Of a stretch of 64,000 bases of DNA, positions 2,595 to 28,477 are shown piece after piece. Each line of letters opens with the position of its first letter. The stretch's first letter is position 1. Location of the stretch: assembly GCA_000092065.1 (NCBI GenBank), contig CP000589.1; one strand, written 5' to 3'. The DNA comes from Ostreococcus lucimarinus. Its lineage: Eukaryota. The notes under the pieces are model-generated. The model saw only the letters and a list, made by a program, of their open reading frames with translations, was not told the DNA's origin and did no database searches. Both the position numbers and the translations under genes were made by a program.

Positions 2595-4109
2595 ATGGCG
2601 ACGACGCGACGGTCGAGCGCGGCGAGGCGCGCCGCGGCGGCGCGCGTCGCGAACGACCGCGACGACGACCGCGACGACGACGACGACGAGGACGCGATGA
2701 CACGCGCGGAGGCGACGGAATCGACGGAAATGGAAGACGATTGCGACTTCGTGCGCGAACTCCCGGGCGCGTCGGGAGGGCTCGAGGAGGCGACGCTGGC
2801 GGCGATGCGGGGCGTGTCGCTGGGAGACGCGTGCGCGGCGGCGGGCGTGAGGACGCTGGCGCGAGAGACGCGAGATGGGGACGCGGTGATCGATCGAGAC
2901 GCGGCGGCGGCGACGACGGAGCGGGCGCTGGACGCGGCGATGCGGGAAAAGGCGCTGGTGCTGGAGAGATACGAGGGAAGGACGCACTCGGTGAAGGCGA
3001 AGGAGGGAAGCGTGCAGGGGGCGTTTCAAAGGGCGGTGTTCGCGAAAAAGTTGCACGAGAGGATCACGACGCGCGTGCGGGAGGAGGTGCGAAGACGAGC
3101 GGAGAGCGATTTGAGAACGGCGAGACGAGCGGCGCAGGAGAGACAGTTGAGTGGGAGGCGAGACGCGAAGGCGGCGATGGACGCGAAACGAGAGGCGCCG
3201 CATAAACCGTGGTTCTTGTTGGAGACGCCGAAGGATGAGCAAATGCGATTGCGAAAGGCGGCGATGGTGGACGCGGCGAACGCCGAGGCGGGCGCGGACG
3301 CGGGCGCGGACGCGTCGTCGTCGTCGTGGACGATGCCGGGGAACGTGACGATCGAGCCCGTGCCAGATACCACGGATGAATCGGTGCTAGGTGCGGTGAG
3401 GATGTGCATTTACATGGTCCAGTCGCATCCGAGACCGATTCAGAAGGTTTTGGACTACCTCTTTGGGTACTCGCCCGCGGTGGACGGCGAAGACTTGGAA
3501 GAAATCGACGCGTACTCCAAAGGGCTCCCAGTGTCGCGCGGTCGAATGCCGGCAGATTTGGCGTACTCGTACGCGGCGAATCTCGACAAAACTCTCGGCG
3601 AACGAGACAAAGTGGCGCTCAAGGCGCTCATCAAGGATGTCAAGGAGGAGTGGTCGTCGCACATCAAAGCCGGGTTCGACGCGGTGAAGGAGCTCGAATC
3701 CACCCCGCTCGACTCCGCAGAGGACATTCGCGTGCAGAATCGCGACAGTTGGCTCCGCGCTATGTTCCCAACCCTCGATTGGCCGACGAGAAACGAGAAA
3801 AATTATAAGTTCATGGAGCATTTGCGCGAGCAACAAGCCTTGGACGCTCGCACCGCAGTCTCGACGTCGCGACCAGTTCCCTTGGCTCTCAGTCGCGCCA
3901 ATCGCGCCAAGCAAGCGCAAGAACAAATTCAAACTTATGATCTGGGTGGCTCAAAGATTCACTACAGCAAAGATGGCGTCCCGATCATTGCTCCCGATGG
4001 TTTCTTCCCCAAGGCGAACACCGCGCCTTCGAAACGCGCCGAGACCGCACGCATCCGTCTCGCCGCCTCCGACGCCGAACGAAGGCTCGCCGAGCGGCGA
4101 CGACTATAG
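2595..4109 (+). CDS. hypothetical conserved-looking protein (504 aa), family not recognised
   Basis: ATG-initiated ORF. The C-terminal ~300 aa have ordinary, non-repetitive composition (VRMCIYMVQSHPRPIQKVLDYLFGYSP, WLRAMFPTLDWPTRNEKNYKFMEHLREQQ). Head-to-head with the U2A' gene across 218 bp. Confidence 0.6.
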   Translation: MATTRRSSAARRAAAARVANDRDDDRDDDDDEDAMTRAEATESTEMEDDCDFVRELPGASGGLEEATLAAMRGVSLGDACAAAGVRTLARETRDGDAVIDRDAAAATTERALDAAMREKALVLERYEGRTHSVKAKEGSVQGAFQRAVFAKKLHERITTRVREEVRRRAESDLRTARRAAQERQLSGRRDAKAAMDAKREAPHKPWFLLETPKDEQMRLRKAAMVDAANAEAGADAGADASSSSWTMPGNVTIEPVPDTTDESVLGAVRMCIYMVQSHPRPIQKVLDYLFGYSPAVDGEDLEEIDAYSKGLPVSRGRMPADLAYSYAANLDKTLGERDKVALKALIKDVKEEWSSHIKAGFDAVKELESTPLDSAEDIRVQNRDSWLRAMFPTLDWPTRNEKNYKFMEHLREQQALDARTAVSTSRPVPLALSRANRAKQAQEQIQTYDLGGSKIHYSKDGVPIIAPDGFFPKANTAPSKRAETARIRLAASDAERRLAERRRL

Positions 4110-20824: not shown

Positions 20825-20893
20825 GGCGAGTGTCGCTGTGAGGGGTGGCGGCGAATTTGTTTCTTACACTGTACAGTACACTGTTTCATCGCT

Positions 20894-23800
20894 TCATTCG
20901 TTGTCGCGGGGATCCACGAGCTCGTACGATGCGTCCGCCTCTTCGTTGAGCATGCGATCGATTTCATCGAGACGCTCGGCGAGCGTTTCGTCTCCATCTT
21001 CGTCGCCCATCGGCGCCGACGGTTTTCCATCGAAATCGCATCCAGTATACGAGTCATTCAACCGGCAGTAATCGATGAGACTCCTCCAGTGCACGTCGTG
21101 GCTCAAGATGTGAGGATTACCCACGATGATCAAGAGTGACATTGCGCGCGTCACGGCAACGTTGAATCGCTTTGGATTCGCCATGAAACCGAGGCGATGG
21201 CGAGCGTCAAACTTCAAATGGGCAGTGTCGCTGCGAACGGTTGATAAGATGACTACGCTAAACTCTTGTCCTTGCAAGAGTTCAGTCGAACCCACGGTGA
21301 CTCCAGAAATCTTTTTCGCTTCGAGGTGTTTCATCATCTTCAGTTTTTGCTTGTGATACGGTGTACAGATGGCGATGTCTTTGGCTGTCAAACCCGTGTT
21401 CTTTCGGTCCAAAATTTTCGTGATCCACGAGCTCACTCGAAGTATCTCGTCGGGATTAAACCAAGATGGCGAATTCGCCTCTCGGAGTTCTTCGCCCATG
21501 ACACCGTCGAAAACGACTGGAAACGATGGATTCGGAAGCTCTTCCCATCCCTTGAAAATGTTCGTCCGCATGGGATCGGCGCAACATTCCAGCCTGTCAA
21601 AGTAGAATAACTTCGACGGAATTTCGATGATGCACGCGTGCGAGCGATAATTTTTCGTGAGCATGCACACTTTACTTGGCTCAAACGTACCGTCCGCGCG
21701 AACGCTATACGGAGTCTCAGTGTACGGCGCCGGAGGTAAGCACAGACGCTCGAGCATACTGACTTCCAAAGCTCTCGATTCCTTGGCTTGCACCAGCGGT
21801 CCCAGCTGTCGGGCGTCGCCGGCCAGAACCAGACGCCCTTTTTTTGGCTCTAATACGCTGACGATGGCGGTGAGAAGTTCGGGCTCCGATGCATGACCTG
21901 CTTCATCGATGATGACATTTTCAAAGCGACGCTCCGGCGATAAAATGAACACTTTCCTCGCTTTCCCTTTTCCGTACTCACCAGAGTCTCGAAACGTCCG
22001 CGTGAGTCTCTGCGCCGTAATCGGTGTCATGGCAACCACTCGAGCTCGCATGAATCTCTCAACAGTCGGCGGACAAAAAACGTTTGCAGTACTATCGTAG
22101 TTTGAGACGTCTAAGAGCTTCGATGGCACCTGATCGGGCATTCGAGAGAAATTGTAGACGCGATACGCTTCGCTCTTTGGAACGCCACCGTGCTCGATGA
22201 CGCGTGAGATGAACAAGTCACACGCCGCGTTACTTGGAGCCATCAACAAGACTCTTCCGCCAGTTTTATACATCTGCGCCGCTATCTCCACGACAGTAGT
22301 CGTCTTACCAGTACCAGGAGGTCCAAAAATGATGAATGGAGATTGTGAACGCGGCGCCATCGCGTTCGCAACTGCGAGCTTTTGTTCCTCGTTTAAGCGC
22401 CGATTCAACATTTTCAGATCTGATCTGCCAGTCGCGTCTACGTCGAGATCGTCGCCAAACTTTGGAAGCAAAAATGACTCATACGACGAAGATTTCAGAG
22501 AGTCTTTAATCGCGCCATGCATGAGTTCTATCGCGGTGCGCGACACTTCAAACGACACGTCAGCCTTGACCCCATTGATGTATGCTTTCGTGAAACCAGG
22601 ATGGAATCGGCACACGATGTGCTCAGCTTCCACGAATTCAACTTTCCCTCGAAATGAGCTTTTAGCCGTGGACAAATCGACGATGATCGAGTCGCCACGA
22701 AGCACCGATGGACGAGCTTCAGCGAGGCCTGGGACGAAAAGTCTATACATGGCTTTGGAATTGGTCTGCGAGAGCGCGACGTTGTGCATATCGTACAATC
22801 TCACGTTTTTGGTCGCCTGCACTTCTTCCATCATGAGCAGCTGACGAAAGAACTGAGCGTAATTCGTCTTCGAGAGATACTTTTGTCCGGTTTCTAGCAT
22901 TTCAGTAACAGAAGATGCCTGTGGTTCCTCGCCGTCGAGCGCTTTCCGAATGTCAGCCATGGGAACGGAAAGCGGAGCCGGCCAGAAGAACTTTGTCTTC
23001 GCGTTTAAAACCTCTTTCGAAGGGCCTGGATCGACGACTTTCTTCGACCCCTTCACCAAACTCGAATTTTTCTGCTGTTTCGGATACGCGAACGCGCTCG
23101 TCGGCCCGAGCGCGATTCGTTCCGCGCTCTCCTGCGCGCTTTCCCTCGCTCGAAGACGCAGCACGAGCACCGAGAGCGTAATCTCGCCCGACTCGACGTC
23201 GTCTTGATACGTTCGATACGAGAAGACGAGTGAAACGTCGTGCACCCCCGCCTTCAAATCCTTCGCCCAATCATCTCTCAAACACACGGCGTTCTCCACC
23301 TCCAGCATTCCTCCCTCCTTCACCTCTCCCTCGAACGTTTTCAGCGTCGGCTCCTCCAACACGCGATCGCCCAAATCGTCTCGGGCGAGCCCGAACGCGC
23401 CGAACAAAACCGTCACCTTCTCCCCCGCATCGATCGGCAATTTCAGCACCACCGACGCGCTTTTCAAATCCGACGCCGACGAGATCTTTCGCGGCACCAG
23501 CGTCTCCTTCGGCGTCGCCTCCGCGCCCGCCTCCGCGCTTCGTCGAAACGTCGCCGCTCGATGTTTCGCGCCGCGCTCGTGCTCCTCTCGTCCGCACGCC
23601 GGCACGTCCACGTCGCACACGTCGCATCGATACGCCCCTAACAGCGCGTCTCGCGCGTCTCTCGCGTTCGAGCGGTGCGCCCTCGTGCGCTCGTGCTCGA
23701 ACCGCGCGCGCGCGGGCATCGACGCATCGCACGCGACGCATCGCCAGGTCAACGAGTCGCGCGTCCGCAGCTTGGCGCGATGCCGCGCGCCGCGCTCGTG

Positions 23801-23938
23801 CGTCGGCATCAAGCGCGCGGGAACGTCGCAATCGCACACTTCGCATCGCGTCGGCGCGCGCGCGCCGTCGACGGGCATGACGCGCGCGCGCGGCGCGATG
23901 TGACGAGTCTCGGAGATCGACGCGACGAGGGGTGCCAT
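20894..23938 (-). CDS. MOV10/SDE3/Armitage-like SF1 RNA helicase with three N-terminal C2H2 zinc fingers
   Basis: Helicase motifs: IIFGPPGTGKTTT, VIIDEAGHASEPE, LVLAGDARQLGP, LTKNYRSH, ICTPYHKQ, GQEFSVVILSTVRS, NVAVTRA. Three C-x2-C-x11-H-x5-H fingers lie at nt 23561-23845. The track start 24067 is GTG; the first ATG is at 23938. Confidence 0.85.
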   Translation of the reverse strand: MAPLVASISETRHIAPRARVMPVDGARAPTRCEVCDCDVPARLMPTHERGARHRAKLRTRDSLTWRCVACDASMPARARFEHERTRAHRSNARDARDALLGAYRCDVCDVDVPACGREEHERGAKHRAATFRRSAEAGAEATPKETLVPRKISSASDLKSASVVLKLPIDAGEKVTVLFGAFGLARDDLGDRVLEEPTLKTFEGEVKEGGMLEVENAVCLRDDWAKDLKAGVHDVSLVFSYRTYQDDVESGEITLSVLVLRLRARESAQESAERIALGPTSAFAYPKQQKNSSLVKGSKKVVDPGPSKEVLNAKTKFFWPAPLSVPMADIRKALDGEEPQASSVTEMLETGQKYLSKTNYAQFFRQLLMMEEVQATKNVRLYDMHNVALSQTNSKAMYRLFVPGLAEARPSVLRGDSIIVDLSTAKSSFRGKVEFVEAEHIVCRFHPGFTKAYINGVKADVSFEVSRTAIELMHGAIKDSLKSSSYESFLLPKFGDDLDVDATGRSDLKMLNRRLNEEQKLAVANAMAPRSQSPFIIFGPPGTGKTTTVVEIAAQMYKTGGRVLLMAPSNAACDLFISRVIEHGGVPKSEAYRVYNFSRMPDQVPSKLLDVSNYDSTANVFCPPTVERFMRARVVAMTPITAQRLTRTFRDSGEYGKGKARKVFILSPERRFENVIIDEAGHASEPELLTAIVSVLEPKKGRLVLAGDARQLGPLVQAKESRALEVSMLERLCLPPAPYTETPYSVRADGTFEPSKVCMLTKNYRSHACIIEIPSKLFYFDRLECCADPMRTNIFKGWEELPNPSFPVVFDGVMGEELREANSPSWFNPDEILRVSSWITKILDRKNTGLTAKDIAICTPYHKQKLKMMKHLEAKKISGVTVGSTELLQGQEFSVVILSTVRSDTAHLKFDARHRLGFMANPKRFNVAVTRAMSLLIIVGNPHILSHDVHWRSLIDYCRLNDSYTGCDFDGKPSAPMGDEDGDETLAERLDEIDRMLNEEADASYELVDPRDNE

Positions 23939-24022
23939 GTTTTTTTGACGCGACGGGACTGGACGCGTCGACGCGACGAGGGGTGCCGTGGTTTTTCGAC
24001 GACGCGACGGGACTGGACGCGC
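23918..24022. repeat. tandem duplication, 2 x ~51-54 bp, spanning the helicase start codon
   Basis: Copy 1 is cgacgcgacgaggggtgccatgtttttttgacgcgacgggactggacgcg. Copy 2 is cgacgcgacgaggggtgccgtggtttttcgacgacgcgacgggactggacgcg. Only copy 1 carries the ATG (catggcacc on the minus strand). Confidence 0.8.
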
Positions 24023-24038: not shown

Positions 24039-24176
24039 GGGAGAGAAGAGAAAATTGCGTCGATCACACGAAGGAAGCGCGCGCGCGCCGGGTGCTCGAG
24101 ACGCGAGCGAAGCGACGCGCGCTCAACCGAGGGCGGTTAAACCGCTGGTGCCGAGCGTCTCGAGCTTTTCGAACGC
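24039..24176. repeat. direct repeat copy A (138 bp), partner of 27355..27463
   Basis: 24056-24087 equals 27370-27401 (32/32 nt) and 24115-24176 equals 27402-27463 (62/62 nt). Copy A has a 27-nt insert (24088-24114). The left ends are degenerate (gggagagaagagaaaat versus gggagaagagaagag). Confidence 0.9.
24123..24176 (-). pseudogene. orphan duplicate of the last 17 codons plus stop of the APX gene
   Basis: The minus strand reads gcg ttc gaa aag ctc gag acg ctc ggc acc agc ggt tta acc gcc ctc ggt tga (AFEKLETLGTSGLTALG*). This is identical to APX 27410-27463, but here it lies 3.3 kb from any peroxidase body. Confidence 0.8.
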
Positions 24177-24249
24177 TTTTCGAACGATGGTAGATTTCCC
24201 GGTACGAGCCAGACCCTTGACGTAAAACACGACGTCCCAACCGTCATGA

Positions 24250-26874
24250 TTAAGAAAACGCGAGTAGATTTTCAACGGTCACACGGCGCGTCTTGACAAT
24301 CGCCAACAACTCAACTGAAGCGATGGACACCAAAAGGAAGAAAAACGCGGCGTTACCACCCGCTTGAGACAAAACTTGAAGCGGAGGTAGCTTGTACTTC
24401 CGTGTACACGAGTATGGGAAATTTTCTTTAGTCCAGGCACACATTCGATCGCGACCGATTTCATCAAAAATTGTGCGGAACGTGTTCAAGACGAGCGCGT
24501 CATTTCGATCCATCACTGCCGTATAGCTCACCGCGATGCCGCCCGCTTTATATTCATCTGTTGTGAGTATCAAGGAGCCATGTACTGTTCCGCTGATGTG
24601 GTTGGTAAAATTGGTTTGCTGATTTTGAAAAAAGGTGTCGAAAGTAGCGTTCACCGTGCCCATCATATTTGCGTAGTACTTGTATGAAGGACCAAATCTG
24701 CCCCACGGACGGAGGTAAGCCGATGGCTGCCGCCCATAATCCGCGTCACTATAGCTCAATATCCCTTGGCCAGGTCCAAATGAAGGCGTGGACTGCTCAA
24801 GCTCGCTTAAACCCGAGTTCGTCAGCGATGGTTCTTCGATTTTGGCTAAACATTCATCGTATGTCCAATTCTTGCCATACCAGATAGCGTCCTTCAATGG
24901 ACGACACGTGAAACCTTCCTTTTCGAGGACATTTTCTACCACCGTTTCCGTAAACTCCTGAGTCGCGTAAAACTGCAGGAGCAACGCAAATACAATCAAA
25001 GAGGCTGCCCCGAGAACAAAGCACACTAAAAGTGTGCGTATAGGTGACATGACGAGGTCCAGATCGGTCACTCGGAACCACTTGTCCTCCATCGGTAAAC
25101 GTGCCTTCCAGCCCAGAGGATTGCTCGCGGGGAGGCGCTTGATTATGATGGCCACTATCCACATGAGGCTTGCGGCGATGAACTGAGCGTTACCATATGA
25201 GAGAGAGAGGCGCGTGAGTGTATCGGGCGGGCCTGACTTTTTGCACTCGTACGGCGAGTTTTCCTTCGTGAAAAGGCACACCTCGTCGCCTGCGACATCC
25301 ATCATGGCTTTCCACACCTCGACTGCATCCGCCTTGAGTGCGTCTGTCCATGAGTTGGAAGGTGCATTGATTAGAATACGAGTCGACTGGGGTTTTCCTC
25401 CAACGAGAAACGAAGCCGGATCTTCCCAGTGATCGAGATCGGTCGTCGCGCTGTATTGAGTCAGCGTAGCGTTTGGGCGTTCTTTGCCCCAAAACGCTTG
25501 CGATGAAACGCCTTCTTTGGATGCATTAAACGGAACATATTTCGCTTTGATTGGGACCGGATTCGGCATGTTCAATGGATCGCCCTGCCAGGATTCGAAA
25601 TTAATATTATCCACCGTGATGTCCTGTAAAGCAGCCTTGCAGTCGTCGAACGTATATCGCACACCGTAACCGAGGTTGTCTGTCGTCAACGGCGTGCAGT
25701 TGTATCCAGGCATTGCCCAAGAACCTGTGATTTGAATATCGGTGATGTACTGCGAAGTCGACGAAAAGTACTGGTAAAACCATGCAAACGTTCCTACACC
25801 GACGGCACAGATGGTAAGCGAAAAGAAACCAACGACCAGCGTGTTCGACACGAATTCGAGCGGCTCCTCGTCGTAAAATTCGGGAGGAAAAGATAACTTT
25901 TCAATCCAGGTTTTCTCATTGGTAGCCTTTGGAGCTTTGCGGAAAAAGCCTATGAAGGTGGGTAAAGTAGCAAGGAACACGGTGATCACGAGCCCAGCAT
26001 TATTATTCGACAGACCAATCATTTCTAAAGCAGTCATTCTTTTCGACTTCAAACACTTGTACGGCAAGTTGTGCTTGGTGAATTCGCACACGTCGCCTCC
26101 ATTGACGTATTCAATCGTCTTGCTGAACAACTGCAAGAAATGAGCCGCGCTGGTGTTAAAAGTCTCGCAATCGCCGACGATTCCATTGGTGCTGCCACCT
26201 CCGGAACGCCTGATTTGGCCCGCGTTGCACGTCGCGCCAGACGGGTTTGGGTACTGCCTGCAGTCGCCGTTGTTTACAACTTGATTGATGTATGTTTCAA
26301 TTTCTGGCGTACGTGATTCCGGAAGCTTTGGCCAAATACCTCGATGGGCTTGAACACTACCGAACGGATTGTAATACACCGAATTCTTCACCGAGCAGTT
26401 ATAGGGTATAGTGCCCCCGTTACTATAGTCAGTACGTGTCAGGTAACCTCCAGCGGCGATAGCCTCTGCATTGGCGATATCAAAGCCAATTGCACTCTCT
26501 GTCAATGGCACTATCTTCGTTAAACACTCTTCGTACGTATAGTTTAACCCGTAAAATTCATCCGGGCTCAACGGCGCGCAGTCGTAGCCAGCGATCGCCG
26601 TGGAGTCGCTGATGATCGTATCCGTCACCCAGCGCGCTTCGTCCGCGTAGTAAAACAACGACCCGATGAATGCCAAGGTAGCGAGCGTGTGCATCGTCAC
26701 CGCCCCGCCGTAGGCCATCCACACTGGTCCTTTGAATTCGAGATACCGCTCGCGCGCCCAATAAATTTCAGGTACTGGAAGTCTTCGTATGAATCGCTCG
26801 ACGGAGCCCCTCGCCTTGCGCGCGCGCTGCTTGATCGACGAGGGCGCCGGGGCCGATGCCGACGCGTGCGTCAT
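24250..26874 (-). CDS. six-TM membrane glycoprotein made of three tandem TM-Cys-ectodomain-TM modules; family not recognised
   Basis: The track start 26904 is TTG; ATG at 26874 (MTHASASAP). Modules span about nt 26793-25939, 25938-25138 and 25137-24253. First shared motif: GYDCAPLSPDEFYGLNYTYEECLTKI / GYNCTPLTTDNLGYGVRYTFDDCKAAL / GFTCRPLKDAIWYGKNWTYDECLAKI. Second shared motif: GDVCEFTKHNLPYKC / DEVCLFTKENSPYEC / DRMCAWTKENFPYSC. Each module is flanked by hydrophobic helices, and there are many N-x-S/T sites. Confidence 0.75.
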   Translation of the reverse strand: MTHASASAPAPSSIKQRARKARGSVERFIRRLPVPEIYWARERYLEFKGPVWMAYGGAVTMHTLATLAFIGSLFYYADEARWVTDTIISDSTAIAGYDCAPLSPDEFYGLNYTYEECLTKIVPLTESAIGFDIANAEAIAAGGYLTRTDYSNGGTIPYNCSVKNSVYYNPFGSVQAHRGIWPKLPESRTPEIETYINQVVNNGDCRQYPNPSGATCNAGQIRRSGGGSTNGIVGDCETFNTSAAHFLQLFSKTIEYVNGGDVCEFTKHNLPYKCLKSKRMTALEMIGLSNNNAGLVITVFLATLPTFIGFFRKAPKATNEKTWIEKLSFPPEFYDEEPLEFVSNTLVVGFFSLTICAVGVGTFAWFYQYFSSTSQYITDIQITGSWAMPGYNCTPLTTDNLGYGVRYTFDDCKAALQDITVDNINFESWQGDPLNMPNPVPIKAKYVPFNASKEGVSSQAFWGKERPNATLTQYSATTDLDHWEDPASFLVGGKPQSTRILINAPSNSWTDALKADAVEVWKAMMDVAGDEVCLFTKENSPYECKKSGPPDTLTRLSLSYGNAQFIAASLMWIVAIIIKRLPASNPLGWKARLPMEDKWFRVTDLDLVMSPIRTLLVCFVLGAASLIVFALLLQFYATQEFTETVVENVLEKEGFTCRPLKDAIWYGKNWTYDECLAKIEEPSLTNSGLSELEQSTPSFGPGQGILSYSDADYGRQPSAYLRPWGRFGPSYKYYANMMGTVNATFDTFFQNQQTNFTNHISGTVHGSLILTTDEYKAGGIAVSYTAVMDRNDALVLNTFRTIFDEIGRDRMCAWTKENFPYSCTRKYKLPPLQVLSQAGGNAAFFFLLVSIASVELLAIVKTRRVTVENLLAFS

Positions 26875-27354
26875 GATGAACGACGGGCTTCCGCGCGCGG
26901 GCAATTTTGCGATGACCGTGCTCTCCGATCTGACGTGTCGACGTAATTACCCTAACGACTCCTCACTCGGTCCCCCCTAATTGAATGCGAATGGAGAGGA
27001 AGTGACTAACATATAATGTGGTTTTTAGAGGTATCATATCAGTATCGAGCCCTGGCTCAAGGGCACGCTGGACTGAGTTACCGTGCGCAATGATACATTA
27101 ATTGCATTACTAGGGATTTCGAAAATAATGTATGAGGGTAAAATAGTGAATTTAATTAACCTAGAGACGTCTTGTCGCGCCGGCGCGCGCCACTTCGCGC
27201 CGCGCGCGCGTCCGGGCGGCGCGGAGTCAACCGATGTTTCCGTGTATCGTGATATCCGACCGTTTAAGTTTGAATTCCACGCGTGGGTGTTGACGGAAGA
27301 CGACCGTTGGAGCTCGATGGGCACGTTAACTTTTGGGCCAGATTCTGTCGCGAC

Positions 27355-27463
27355 GGGAGAAGAGAAGAGTGCGTCGATCACACGAAGGAAGCGCGCGCGC
27401 GACGCGCGCTCAACCGAGGGCGGTTAAACCGCTGGTGCCGAGCGTCTCGAGCTTTTCGAACGC
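27355..27463. repeat. direct repeat copy B (109 bp), partner of 24039..24176; overlaps the genuine APX 3' end
   Basis: See copy A. Copy B contains the true APX stop (27410-27412), the last 17 codons and about 55 nt of 3' flank. Confidence 0.9.
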
Positions 27464-28477
27464 GGCGGCGAAGTCTTCGAAGAAAACCTTCTGACTCTTG
27501 GCGTAGACGTCGACGTACTTCTTGAAGTCGGCGTCTTCGATGAGCGCGATGTCGCTCGGAAGCATCATCAAGTTGCCGCTCGGGTCTTTGTATTGGAACT
27601 TTTTGGCGTCCGGATTCGGCTCCCACTTCAAGCCTTTGAGGAGGACGAAGTAGGAGTTGTTGAACAGCAACGGCGTCCCGCTCCACGGTCCGACGTAACC
27701 GGACGCGTCGGCGTGACAACGACCGAGGGCGTGGGCGCCGCTCAACGCGACGATTTCTCGATCGTCGAAACCCATGCGGTAGAAGACGTCGCGCAAGCCT
27801 TGCCTCGTCTTCGGTCCAGGGCCGTCGCCCTTGTCGGCGTCGGGCAAGCGCCCGTCGGGGGTGACCGCCTCGGGATCCATCTCGTCGACGCGACCGTACG
27901 AAAACTTCAACTTCGGCCCGCCCATCTCTTCGATCGCCACGACGCCGACGAACGCGATGAGATCGGCCCACGATACGTCCGGGTGCCGCTTCTTGATCGG
28001 CTCGAGCTTCGCGATCGCCTTATCCAGTCCCGCGTTCCCGCCGTGCGCGAGTTCCTCTTTAAACCGAATCGTCCCGCCGCCGCTCCCACCAGTCTTGCCC
28101 ATCCGGTCGTACGTCCCGGACGAGTGCCACGCGAGTCGCACGAGCGTCGGCCCGAAGTCCGCGTCGGCGCGCGTCAGCTCGACCGCGTCCCGTCGAACCG
28201 ACGCGAAGCGTTCCTCCGCCGTCGCCGCGCGCGCGGGCGCGACGTCGAACGCCGCGAAGAGCGCCGGCGCGAGCGCGATCGACGCGAGCGCGCGTCGTCG
28301 CGGCGTCGATGAATCGGATGGCGATTCGTCCGAAACGACGTTTCGGACGACCGTCGCGCGCGGACGCGGACGCGTCGCCGCGCGCGTCGCGCGAGCGCGC
28401 GTCGAAGCCGACCCGATCGCCGCGCCGAGCTTCGCGCGCGCCGTCGTCGTCGTCGTCGTCGTCGTCGTCGCGCGCAT
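27410..28477 (-). CDS. APX: class I haem peroxidase (ascorbate peroxidase-like) with chloroplast transit plus Tat-type lumenal signal
   Basis: Distal site LVRLAWHSSGTYD; proximal site IVALSGAHALGRCH; also GPWSGTPLLFNNSYF. The first ATG is at 28477 (MRATTTTTTTTTARAKLG), followed by PRRRALASIALAPALFAAFDVAPARA. The track start 28672 is GTG. Confidence 0.85.
   Translation of the reverse strand: MRATTTTTTTTTARAKLGAAIGSASTRARATRAATRPRPRATVVRNVVSDESPSDSSTPRRRALASIALAPALFAAFDVAPARAATAEERFASVRRDAVELTRADADFGPTLVRLAWHSSGTYDRMGKTGGSGGGTIRFKEELAHGGNAGLDKAIAKLEPIKKRHPDVSWADLIAFVGVVAIEEMGGPKLKFSYGRVDEMDPEAVTPDGRLPDADKGDGPGPKTRQGLRDVFYRMGFDDREIVALSGAHALGRCHADASGYVGPWSGTPLLFNNSYFVLLKGLKWEPNPDAKKFQYKDPSGNLMMLPSDIALIEDADFKKYVDVYAKSQKVFFEDFAAAFEKLETLGTSGLTALG

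Follow-up and report, generated by a model that had tools for sequence, protein, structure and literature searches.

The locus described here lies in a 64,000-nt stretch of Ostreococcus lucimarinus DNA (GenBank assembly GCA_000092065.1, contig CP000589.1; hereafter the window), in which the gene for a membrane protein, termed M, is enclosed by two direct copies of the 3′ end of the neighboring ascorbate peroxidase (APX) gene. All three genes of the interval are on the minus strand, and in gene orientation the order is APX, repeat copy B, the M upstream region, M, 63 nt, repeat copy A, and a helicase gene. The ascorbate-peroxidase-type gene (27410..28477, minus strand) is intact in the open reading frame (ORF) list, encodes 355 amino acids (aa) and matches the Pfam peroxidase family at 4e-44; a 355-aa APX product is common to contigs with and without the insert, and an exact look-up of the window’s own 355-aa APX protein returned no match. 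The M gene (24250..26874, minus strand; ORF list) encodes 874 aa and is without a Pfam or PHROG match. Its upstream region (26875..27277, minus strand), which includes an AT-rich stretch where GC drops to 0.44-0.49 (26900-27199), accompanies M in all haplotypes, in line with the initial annotation of this DNA, an earlier reading of the sequence that had described a single gene with its own upstream region. Between that region and copy B lie 73-79 nt of filler DNA or donor-specific sequence (27278..27356, minus strand). Directly after the M stop codon, 60 nt (24186..24245, minus strand) are a relic of a D5-like (superfamily 3) primase-helicase gene that the initial annotation had missed; this relic is 100% identical to positions 3217-3276 of the metagenome contig L019 and encodes DGWDVVFYVKGLARTGKSTI, including a Walker A motif. 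The helicase gene (20894..23938, minus strand) encodes a 1014-aa MOV10-like superfamily 1 helicase with Pfam AAA_11, AAA_12 and MOV-10 beta-barrel matches, and beyond it is an unoccupied target, CAGTGTACTGTACAGTGTAAG (20863..20883, minus strand; core ACTGTACAGT at 20868-20877), at which other haplotypes carry M inside an element bounded by terminal inverted repeats (TIRs).

The repeats consist of host sequence. Copy B (27357..27463, minus strand, 107 nt) comprises the last 17 APX codons, the stop codon and 53 nt of 3′ flank, and copy A (24043..24176, minus strand, 134 nt) comprises the same last 17 codons and stop followed by all 80 nt of the ancestral 3′ flank, and it adjoins the helicase upstream region without interruption. 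The exact blocks given in the initial annotation were reproduced to the base, 24056-24087 being equal to 27370-27401 (32/32 nt) and 24115-24176 to 27402-27463 (62/62 nt), and a repeat search lengthens the second block to 65/65 nt (24112-24176 versus 27399-27463). Over 134 nt the copies are distinguished by 2 substitutions, among the 107 positions that they share, and by a 27-nt indel, the 27 nt (24088-24114) being present in copy A only; the 11-nt sequence cttttcgaacg stands in tandem at 24165-24186, a feature considered below. Since a scan of the whole window found no further long repeat except GC-rich low complexity, a chance origin of the repeats can be excluded. The segment has, as previously stated, neither TIRs nor long terminal repeats (LTRs): no inverted repeats were found at the ends of 24177-27356 and no LTRs within the segment, the insert holds no reverse transcriptase or integrase ORF according to the ORF list and Pfam, and the 19-30 kb part of the window contains no Rfam families or tRNAs. 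An LTR retrotransposon or retrocopy was considered and rejected, the repeats being host APX sequence that is single-copy at the empty site and the insert carrying its own upstream region. Within the repeat, an 11-nt inverted-repeat hairpin, with its 3′ arm among the 27 nt, does not stand out (z = -1.13).

The window was compared with about 35 metagenome contigs, in which three states of the locus were distinguished: type 0, with no M at the locus; type I, with M between APX and helicase as in the window; and types II/III, with M between the helicase and a DUF1499 gene. The two-copy structure is reproduced by at least 10 independent assemblies spanning APX-M-helicase at 99.3-99.7% identity to the window, obtained from different samples with different assemblers and available at ENA and JGI; both copies are present in L009-L012, L016, L024, L029, L031, L036, L037, L039 and L041. 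Misassembly can be excluded because independent assemblies from different samples show the same structure. Moreover, the exact 822-aa M product was found on contigs from many marine metagenomes. When the exact DUF1499 protein was looked up, seven of the ten places where it occurs had APX, helicase and DUF1499 without M anywhere in the locus. The type 0 contigs (L025, L027, L028, L030, L032, L033 and L034) are approximately 99.5% identical to the window, and their empty site measures 184 nt from the APX stop to the helicase ATG, close to the 150-180 nt spacer that had been predicted for it. Because near-identical contigs carry the empty site, the segment is an insertion polymorphism, as the initial annotation had proposed for a gene-sized insertion with presence/absence polymorphism, and wild populations carry chromosomes with and without the insert. 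In the case of L020 (type II, approximately 99% identical to the window), the order is APX, single repeat, helicase, and then the M cassette before DUF1499. In two outgroup species, with helicases 54-55% identical, DUF1499 immediately follows the helicase, which is also the order in the window; these loci provide no direct empty site, because a MatE gene rather than APX lies upstream of their helicase.

The single-copy alleles also settle the polarity of the repeats. In the type 0 contigs and in L020, one repeat copy that includes the 27 nt is directly joined to the helicase upstream region. Copy A together with the helicase upstream region is thus the ancestral contiguous sequence, since the type 0 single repeat runs straight into that region; copy A is identical base for base to the single copy of L030 and L034 and one base different from that of L020 and the L025 group. 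The initial annotation had taken the opposite direction, regarding copy A as derived and the 27 nt as an insert in it. Every single-copy allele has these 27 nt, so it was copy B that lost them, and the loss falls between CGC microhomologies; the deletion and two substitutions at its distal edge distinguish copy B from the ancestral single-copy sequence.

An older form of the insertion is found in L036, a 53-kb type I contig that is 218 nt longer between M and the helicase than the window. Its primase-helicase relic is 245 nt long and 100% identical to L019 3276-3032, its relic|APX junction (GATGTGGCT|ACGCCAAGAG) has a 2-nt CT microhomology, and its copy A includes a further 43 nt of APX, extending to the equivalent of window position 27506. 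The repeat copies of L036 are 175 and 148 nt, identical except for the 27-nt deletion and the two distal-edge substitutions, and the contig has no 11-nt tandem repeat. Relative to L036, the window allele lacks 227 nt and has gained nine templated nt, GTTCGAAAA, the relic having become 185 nt shorter and copy A 43 nt shorter (long-allele junction sequence, GATGTGGCTACGCCAAGAG; short-allele junction sequence, CTACCATCGTTCGAAAAGCGTTCG). Together with the beginning of copy A, these nine nt produce the 11-nt tandem repeat (24165..24186, minus strand), which had been read as the insertion junction; because L036 lacks the tandem and has 227 nt more at this place, the tandem is the scar of a later deletion. 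On sequence comparison, L036 is the older allele, in which the original event, and against which the order of the secondary deletions, can be followed. The templated or microhomology-mediated repair that the initial annotation had suggested for the junctions is supported.

The source of the insert was identified through the relic. Contig L007 (3,070 nt) matches the M cassette at 99.1% and departs exactly at window position 24186 into an open frame with a Walker A motif; a metagenome scan for this type of junction returned five contigs. L019 carries an intact 707-aa primase-helicase gene (PHROG DNA primase, 9e-15; family DUF5906, with D5_N in some members), the interior of which is 100% identical to window 24186-24245. 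One source names the DUF5906/D5_N family “phage/plasmid-associated DNA primase”; Pfam found nothing significant on the 79-aa primase-helicase relic. In L020, L021, L007, L023 and L044, the M cassette is joined to the primase-helicase gene at the same point as in the window, and this M-proximal breakpoint is identical in every context. The distal ends of the relic are nested, the shortest relic being that of the window (60 nt), followed by those of type III (110 nt), type II (208 nt) and L036 (245 nt), and the longest that of L040 (at least 713 nt). At the other position, between helicase and DUF1499, the cassette lies inside an element with 28-nt perfect TIRs (AATCTACCCCCGCCATTGCGCGGGATGA), which has the core ACTGTACAGT at both ends, a 6-10-bp duplicated core. 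This core occurs once and unoccupied in the window and in all type 0 and type I contigs, and it is occupied in L020, L021, L023 and L044; the 28-nt TIR itself does not occur in the window even when up to 3 mismatches are allowed. Type III contigs (L023 and L044) have the type II left end followed by at least 12 kb of virus-like DNA with a GIY-YIG gene, an S74 fiber-like gene and an ORF that spans 3,414 aa or more. The gene set of the element (L044 6230-18312, L045 and L046) comprises the primase-helicase, which is intact with 733 aa in L046, a GIY-YIG protein of 165 aa, proteins of 256, 208-247 and 141 aa, an S74 fiber-like protein of 774 aa and the ORF of at least 3,414 aa. Pfam recognized only the S74 domain and, weakly, GIY-YIG; the 90% cluster of the GIY-YIG gene has 898 members, including O. 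lucimarinus CCE9901 XP_001421474.1. The 60-nt relic identifies the donor, a virus-like mobile element resident in the genome. In the part of this element that was examined, approximately 18 kb, neither a capsid gene nor a packaging ATPase, polymerase B or integrase was recognized. The IMG/VR viral contigs held no relative of M or of the primase-helicase, and exact-match scans of IMG/VR for a 24-nt TIR core and a 28-nt stretch of the filler found none.

At the other junction, common to the window and L036, copy B ends in TTCTCTTCTC, a 10-nt imperfect microhomology, and the filler, which starts CCGTCGCGACAGAATCTGGCCCAAAAGTTAACG, follows for 73-79 nt. The M upstream region is collinear with that of L020 and L023, in which the cassette is at the other position, up to window 27277-27283. 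No donor containing the 73-79-nt filler was found. The filler (window 27278-27356) has a second, strongly diverged allele in L024 (about 840-900) that is 18 nt shorter, far more variation than in the rest of the locus.

The near-identity of the repeats had been attributed to a recent event or to gene conversion. The copies nevertheless differ by the two substitutions and the 27-nt indel given above, and the type I cassette differs from its type II/III relatives at 32-38 of approximately 3,090 positions; the helicase differs similarly between those haplotypes. Among type I contigs, the M cassette has 3-12 differing positions, and within-type cassette diversity is comparable to that of the flanking genes, so that neither a recent origin nor gene conversion has to be invoked. 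The helicase haplotypes of type I are mosaic and lie close to type 0, with none of about 17 private alleles that the type II helicase carries in its 3′ half, and L030 and L034 have the window’s 5′ helicase haplotype.

These observations are probably best explained by the capture of ectopic DNA at a chromosome break, accompanied by duplication of the target. The ancestral state would have been type 0 (APX, the 184-nt spacer, helicase and the DUF1499 gene), into which a single event would have placed an element fragment of approximately 3.36 kb, at the 3′ end of APX. The fragment would have carried M with its own upstream region and a 245-nt internal piece of the primase-helicase gene, its ends being arbitrary break points and not element termini; in the window, the insert ends inside the primase-helicase gene (L019 position 3217; 3032 in L036) and in the filler 73-79 nt above the shared M upstream region. 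With it, 175 bp of target would have been duplicated, namely the last 30 APX codons, the stop and the 80 nt of flank. Because integration duplicated the target, APX kept an intact 3′ end in copy B, and copy A stayed with the helicase upstream region. Most economically, a staggered break would have had both overhangs filled in before end joining, with ectopic DNA captured in the process; an identical product would result if the capture took place between sister chromatids with breaks 175 nt from each other. Subsequently, copy B lost its 27 nt between the CGC microhomologies, and the copy A side lost 227 nt and gained the nine templated nt that create the 11-nt tandem repeat. M transcripts would presumably use the APX terminator within copy A.

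Break-repair capture is supported by the arbitrary truncation of the donor, the minimal or imperfect microhomology with filler, and the duplication of host sequence. Polymerase theta end joining characteristically leaves templated insertions, and the 227-nt deletion with its 9-nt templated insertion would be typical of this pathway; either this pathway or non-homologous end joining may have repaired the original break. Tandem duplications are known to arise when complementary 3′ overhangs are filled in and the ends are then sealed by non-homologous end joining (PMC8355091). The initial annotation overstated the case in placing the mechanism outside known classes, since staggered-break fill-in, end joining and ectopic DNA capture suffice. 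As for the length of the duplication, selection probably explains it, because the break point lies in the APX coding region and only an event that duplicated the target would leave APX intact.

Several points weigh against this explanation. The sequences used for comparison are without exception metagenome contigs assembled from short reads; such contigs can be chimeric, as L040 probably is. The 73-79 nt upstream of 27277 are unmatched in the window, the fetched loci and the viral contigs, and no donor copy with them was found. Both cassette positions flank the same helicase, only 3.3 kb apart, which would be an odd coincidence for independent captures and therefore suggests a local event in cis. 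Type I helicases lack the private SNPs (single-nucleotide polymorphisms) of types II/III, for which reason a cis origin would require later recombination. Such a cis event would be provided by a local tandem duplication followed by losses, starting from a chromosome with the element between helicase and DUF1499. A block of repeat, helicase, element left end, M and 245 nt of relic would be duplicated to form the relic|APX junction, the first helicase copy would then be deleted to give the repeat|filler junction, and the downstream element would be removed by recombination with an empty-site chromosome. This sequence accounts for both cassette positions flanking the same helicase and for the length of the repeat without a staggered break; the relic|APX junction with its 2-nt microhomology resembles a simple duplication breakpoint, and the mosaic haplotypes in the SNP tables indicate that recombination occurs. 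It needs three events, however, and it leaves the filler without a source, the 73-79 nt being absent from the sampled element, and the type I helicases without any of the roughly 17 private type II alleles. Nor does any haplotype among the approximately 35 contigs carry a second helicase copy or have M in both places, although the searches were not designed for that. On balance we consider this route unlikely.

The remaining alternatives are far less probable. Were M ancestral between APX and helicase, the repeats would be a secondary local duplication and the empty sites the products of recombination between them. Such a product would equal the single copy of L030 and L034, which share the window’s 5′ helicase haplotype, and for this reason some empty sites could be revertants. 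As a general account, the proposal is very improbable and already largely refuted: the allele of the L025 group and L020 in or beside the repeat cannot come from the two window copies, the start of copy A falls within the APX coding region, a piece of a mobile-element gene forms the end of the insert, the relic|APX transition of L036 is a plain insertion junction, and M is absent from the locus in the seven of ten places noted above. A Campbell-type integration, in which circular DNA with M and the APX 3′ end enters by a single crossover, would yield direct repeats of the homology flanking the insert, and homologous recombination is efficient in Ostreococcus. No APX-derived sequence was found in the donor-type contexts fetched (L019, L020, L021, L044 and L046; a limited sampling), and the outer repeat boundaries meet microhomology, filler and arbitrary breakpoints, not clean ends of homology, which leaves this integration with hardly any likelihood. 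Equally remote is an insertion mediated by a transposase or integrase with an unusually long target-site duplication. At the other position the cassette does lie inside a genuine TIR-bounded element, but the window copy has neither TIR and terminates within a gene fragment at one end and in filler of unrelated sequence at the other, and its duplication is 175 bp as opposed to 6-10 bp at the element’s own insertion site; the missing termini contradict this route. Finally, an assembly artefact has next to no probability. A 65-nt exact repeat can loop short-read assembly graphs, and L040 is probably such a case, but the independent assemblies agree across samples, programs and centers, share the junction-specific sequence and show differences at the SNP level. 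The contig in question, L040 (1-8002), contains two 100% identical M cassettes in tandem with a period of 3,284 nt, about the repeat-to-repeat spacing, and then at least 713 nt of the primase-helicase gene. A real tandem duplication was set aside for it because its two copies are 100% identical, and the arrangement is probably an assembly loop through the 65-nt repeat; the contig still shows type-I-like M sequence adjoining a much longer relic.

Capture at a break, the explanation preferred here, places the locus beside several known systems. With plant T-DNA, organelle-DNA and filler-DNA insertions it shares an empty-site allele, an arbitrarily truncated insert, a direct repeat of host sequence, 0-2-nt or imperfect microhomology, filler, and the templated 9 nt at a later deletion. 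In contrast to those break-repair insertions, the duplication (175 bp) and the fragment (3.36 kb, with a complete functional gene) are large here, the donor virus-like element is only 3.3 kb away in other haplotypes, and the repair pathway in Ostreococcus is inferred. The likeness to fork stalling and template switching/microhomology-mediated break-induced replication (FoSTeS/MMBIR), and to tandem duplication with deletion, consists in a local rearrangement within 7 kb, breakpoint microhomology and an inserted stretch of unmatched origin; here, however, no duplicated-helicase intermediate was observed, and the flanking haplotype is like that of empty-site and not element-bearing chromosomes. 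As in Pack-MULEs and Helitrons, a gene with host-type relatives is carried at one position in a TIR-bounded element, whereas the window copy is without element termini, a short target-site duplication or Helitron ends and was not moved as a transposon. TIR DNA transposons have a fixed target-site duplication of 2-11 bp, while the present one was 175 bp originally and is 134/107 nt in the window.

The donor resembles the polinton-like viruses and virophage-like elements of protists in having a D5/DUF5906 primase-helicase, TIRs, a GC content of 0.50-0.53 compared with 0.60 in the host, and multiple copies in the host (PMC10120064). Ostreococcus genomes are reported to hold 1-2 capsid genes of the polinton-like-virus type (PMC10120064), whereas the approximately 18 kb of the donor hold GIY-YIG, S74 fiber-like and the ORF of at least 3,414 aa in place of a capsid, packaging ATPase, polymerase B or integrase gene. 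Some further features of this element were recorded. Its ends are built on a 16-nt perfect palindrome, ATTACTGTACAGTAAT, and its right end has 12-16 extra nt resembling an inverted copy of the left target flank (L020 11256-11300; L021 1426-1470; L044 2694-2737). In L035 (15633-15713), right-end and left-end arms face each other across four telomere-type repeats (CCCTAAA), and in L044 (7060-7085) and L046 (about 445-470) two end-like arms directly abut. This arrangement suggests linear units that are telomere-capped or hairpin-ended, or site-specific integration of an att-like kind. The same L035 (Ga0494219_01171, a 67-kb contig) has a 74%-identical primase-helicase homologue amid polysaccharide pyruvyl-transferase and Kelch genes, a setting that we take to resemble the glycosyltransferase-rich outlier chromosomes of Mamiellales.

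The cargo gene encodes a protein with six predicted transmembrane (TM) helices arranged in three homologous modules that are 19-24% identical to each other. Each module consists of a TM helix, an ectodomain of about 200 aa with two conserved Cys pairs, and a second TM helix, and it is marked by the motifs Y-x-C-x-P-L and C-x2-K-x-N-x-P-Y-x-C. A profile search of 1.84 billion representatives retrieved 228 M relatives, many of them single-module, and none of the nine relatives scanned had a Pfam domain for the module. The protein cluster of M has no NCBI member; the MYST acetyltransferase encoded in the window shares a 90%-identity cluster with O. lucimarinus CCE9901 XP_001419529.1. A protein of Ostreococcus lucimarinus virus 1, OlV1_007c (YP_004061640.1), falls into the 90% cluster of one of the M relatives, P0193, and M matches this viral protein with 98.5% probability and an E value of 3e-15 in hhalign and at 5e-9 in BLASTP. 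By profile and pairwise alignment, M is a homologue of this prasinovirus protein: both have the module with its N-terminal TM helix, the two motifs (the second in the form C-x2-K-x-N-x-P-[FY]-x-C) and the C-terminal TM helix, the viral protein differing from M in having a single longer module (413 aa) as opposed to three and an identity of approximately 22%. A first AlphaFold2 model of an M module was too poor for use, with a predicted local distance difference test (pLDDT) score of 62; that of module 3 reached a pLDDT of 71, with its core above 85. The module 3 model had no significant match in the PDB and one significant match among viral models (BFVD), E5ERE8, at 1e-8.

Three-module M homologues with 38-41% identity were also found in other species (P0003 on L001-L006; P0002 on L008), in a host-like context of Myb, the M homologue, a 502-aa gene and a discoidin-domain gene. 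Because these distant homologues lie in a host-like context, the M family may be of host origin and have been captured by the element in the O. lucimarinus lineage. The 502-aa gene beside the distant homologue in L001 was considered as a relative of the relic and proved unrelated. Purely as a hypothesis, M might have a role at the host-virus interface. A broader scenario can be imagined, in which M is an accessory virus-related surface protein gene shuttled in O. lucimarinus populations by uncharacterized large virus-like elements (primase-helicase, GIY-YIG, S74 and the ORF of more than 3,400 aa, with ends on ATTACTGTACAGTAAT), and in which absent, left, right, long and short alleles would be maintained and tied to prasinovirus susceptibility, the landing by the MOV10-like helicase being targeted or locally constrained and not due to chance; we hold it to be rather improbable.

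Further variation was observed in and around the three genes. In L031 (4121-6584), which has the insert, the M frame is split into 623 and 175 aa by a 5-nt length difference, as in a pseudogenized allele or an assembly error. A 51-nt tandem duplication at 23917-24001 covers the helicase start region, with ATG in the downstream copy (23938) and ACG in the upstream copy, and it is older than the insertion, as empty-site contigs also have it. The helicase N-terminus contains three repeats of approximately 105-114 nt (23557-23850) that encode Cys/His zinc-finger-like modules, and a 9-nt indel, GAGACGCGC, segregates there among haplotypes, with products of 1011 and 1014 aa. Meanwhile, a poly-Thr tract in the N-terminal extension of APX (a GAC/GTC repeat at about 28455-28466) is length-polymorphic and gives products of 352-355 aa.

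The locus reveals no new class of mobile element and no new mechanism, its mechanism being of a known kind. It is instead a cleanly resolved natural case of a compact eukaryotic genome gaining a whole gene without harm to its neighbors, the long target duplication having preserved the APX 3′ end and the helicase upstream region alike. All stages are found in wild populations, from the empty site through the original long allele and the trimmed allele to the alternative position, and the insertion continues to segregate, with empty-site chromosomes on the one hand and those with the cassette beyond the helicase on the other. The locus can therefore serve as a marker, and in Mamiellophyceae it offers a test case for the signatures of break repair. 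The M family, shared by host and prasinovirus, and the donor element are so far undescribed, and the locus may bear on host-virus interactions.

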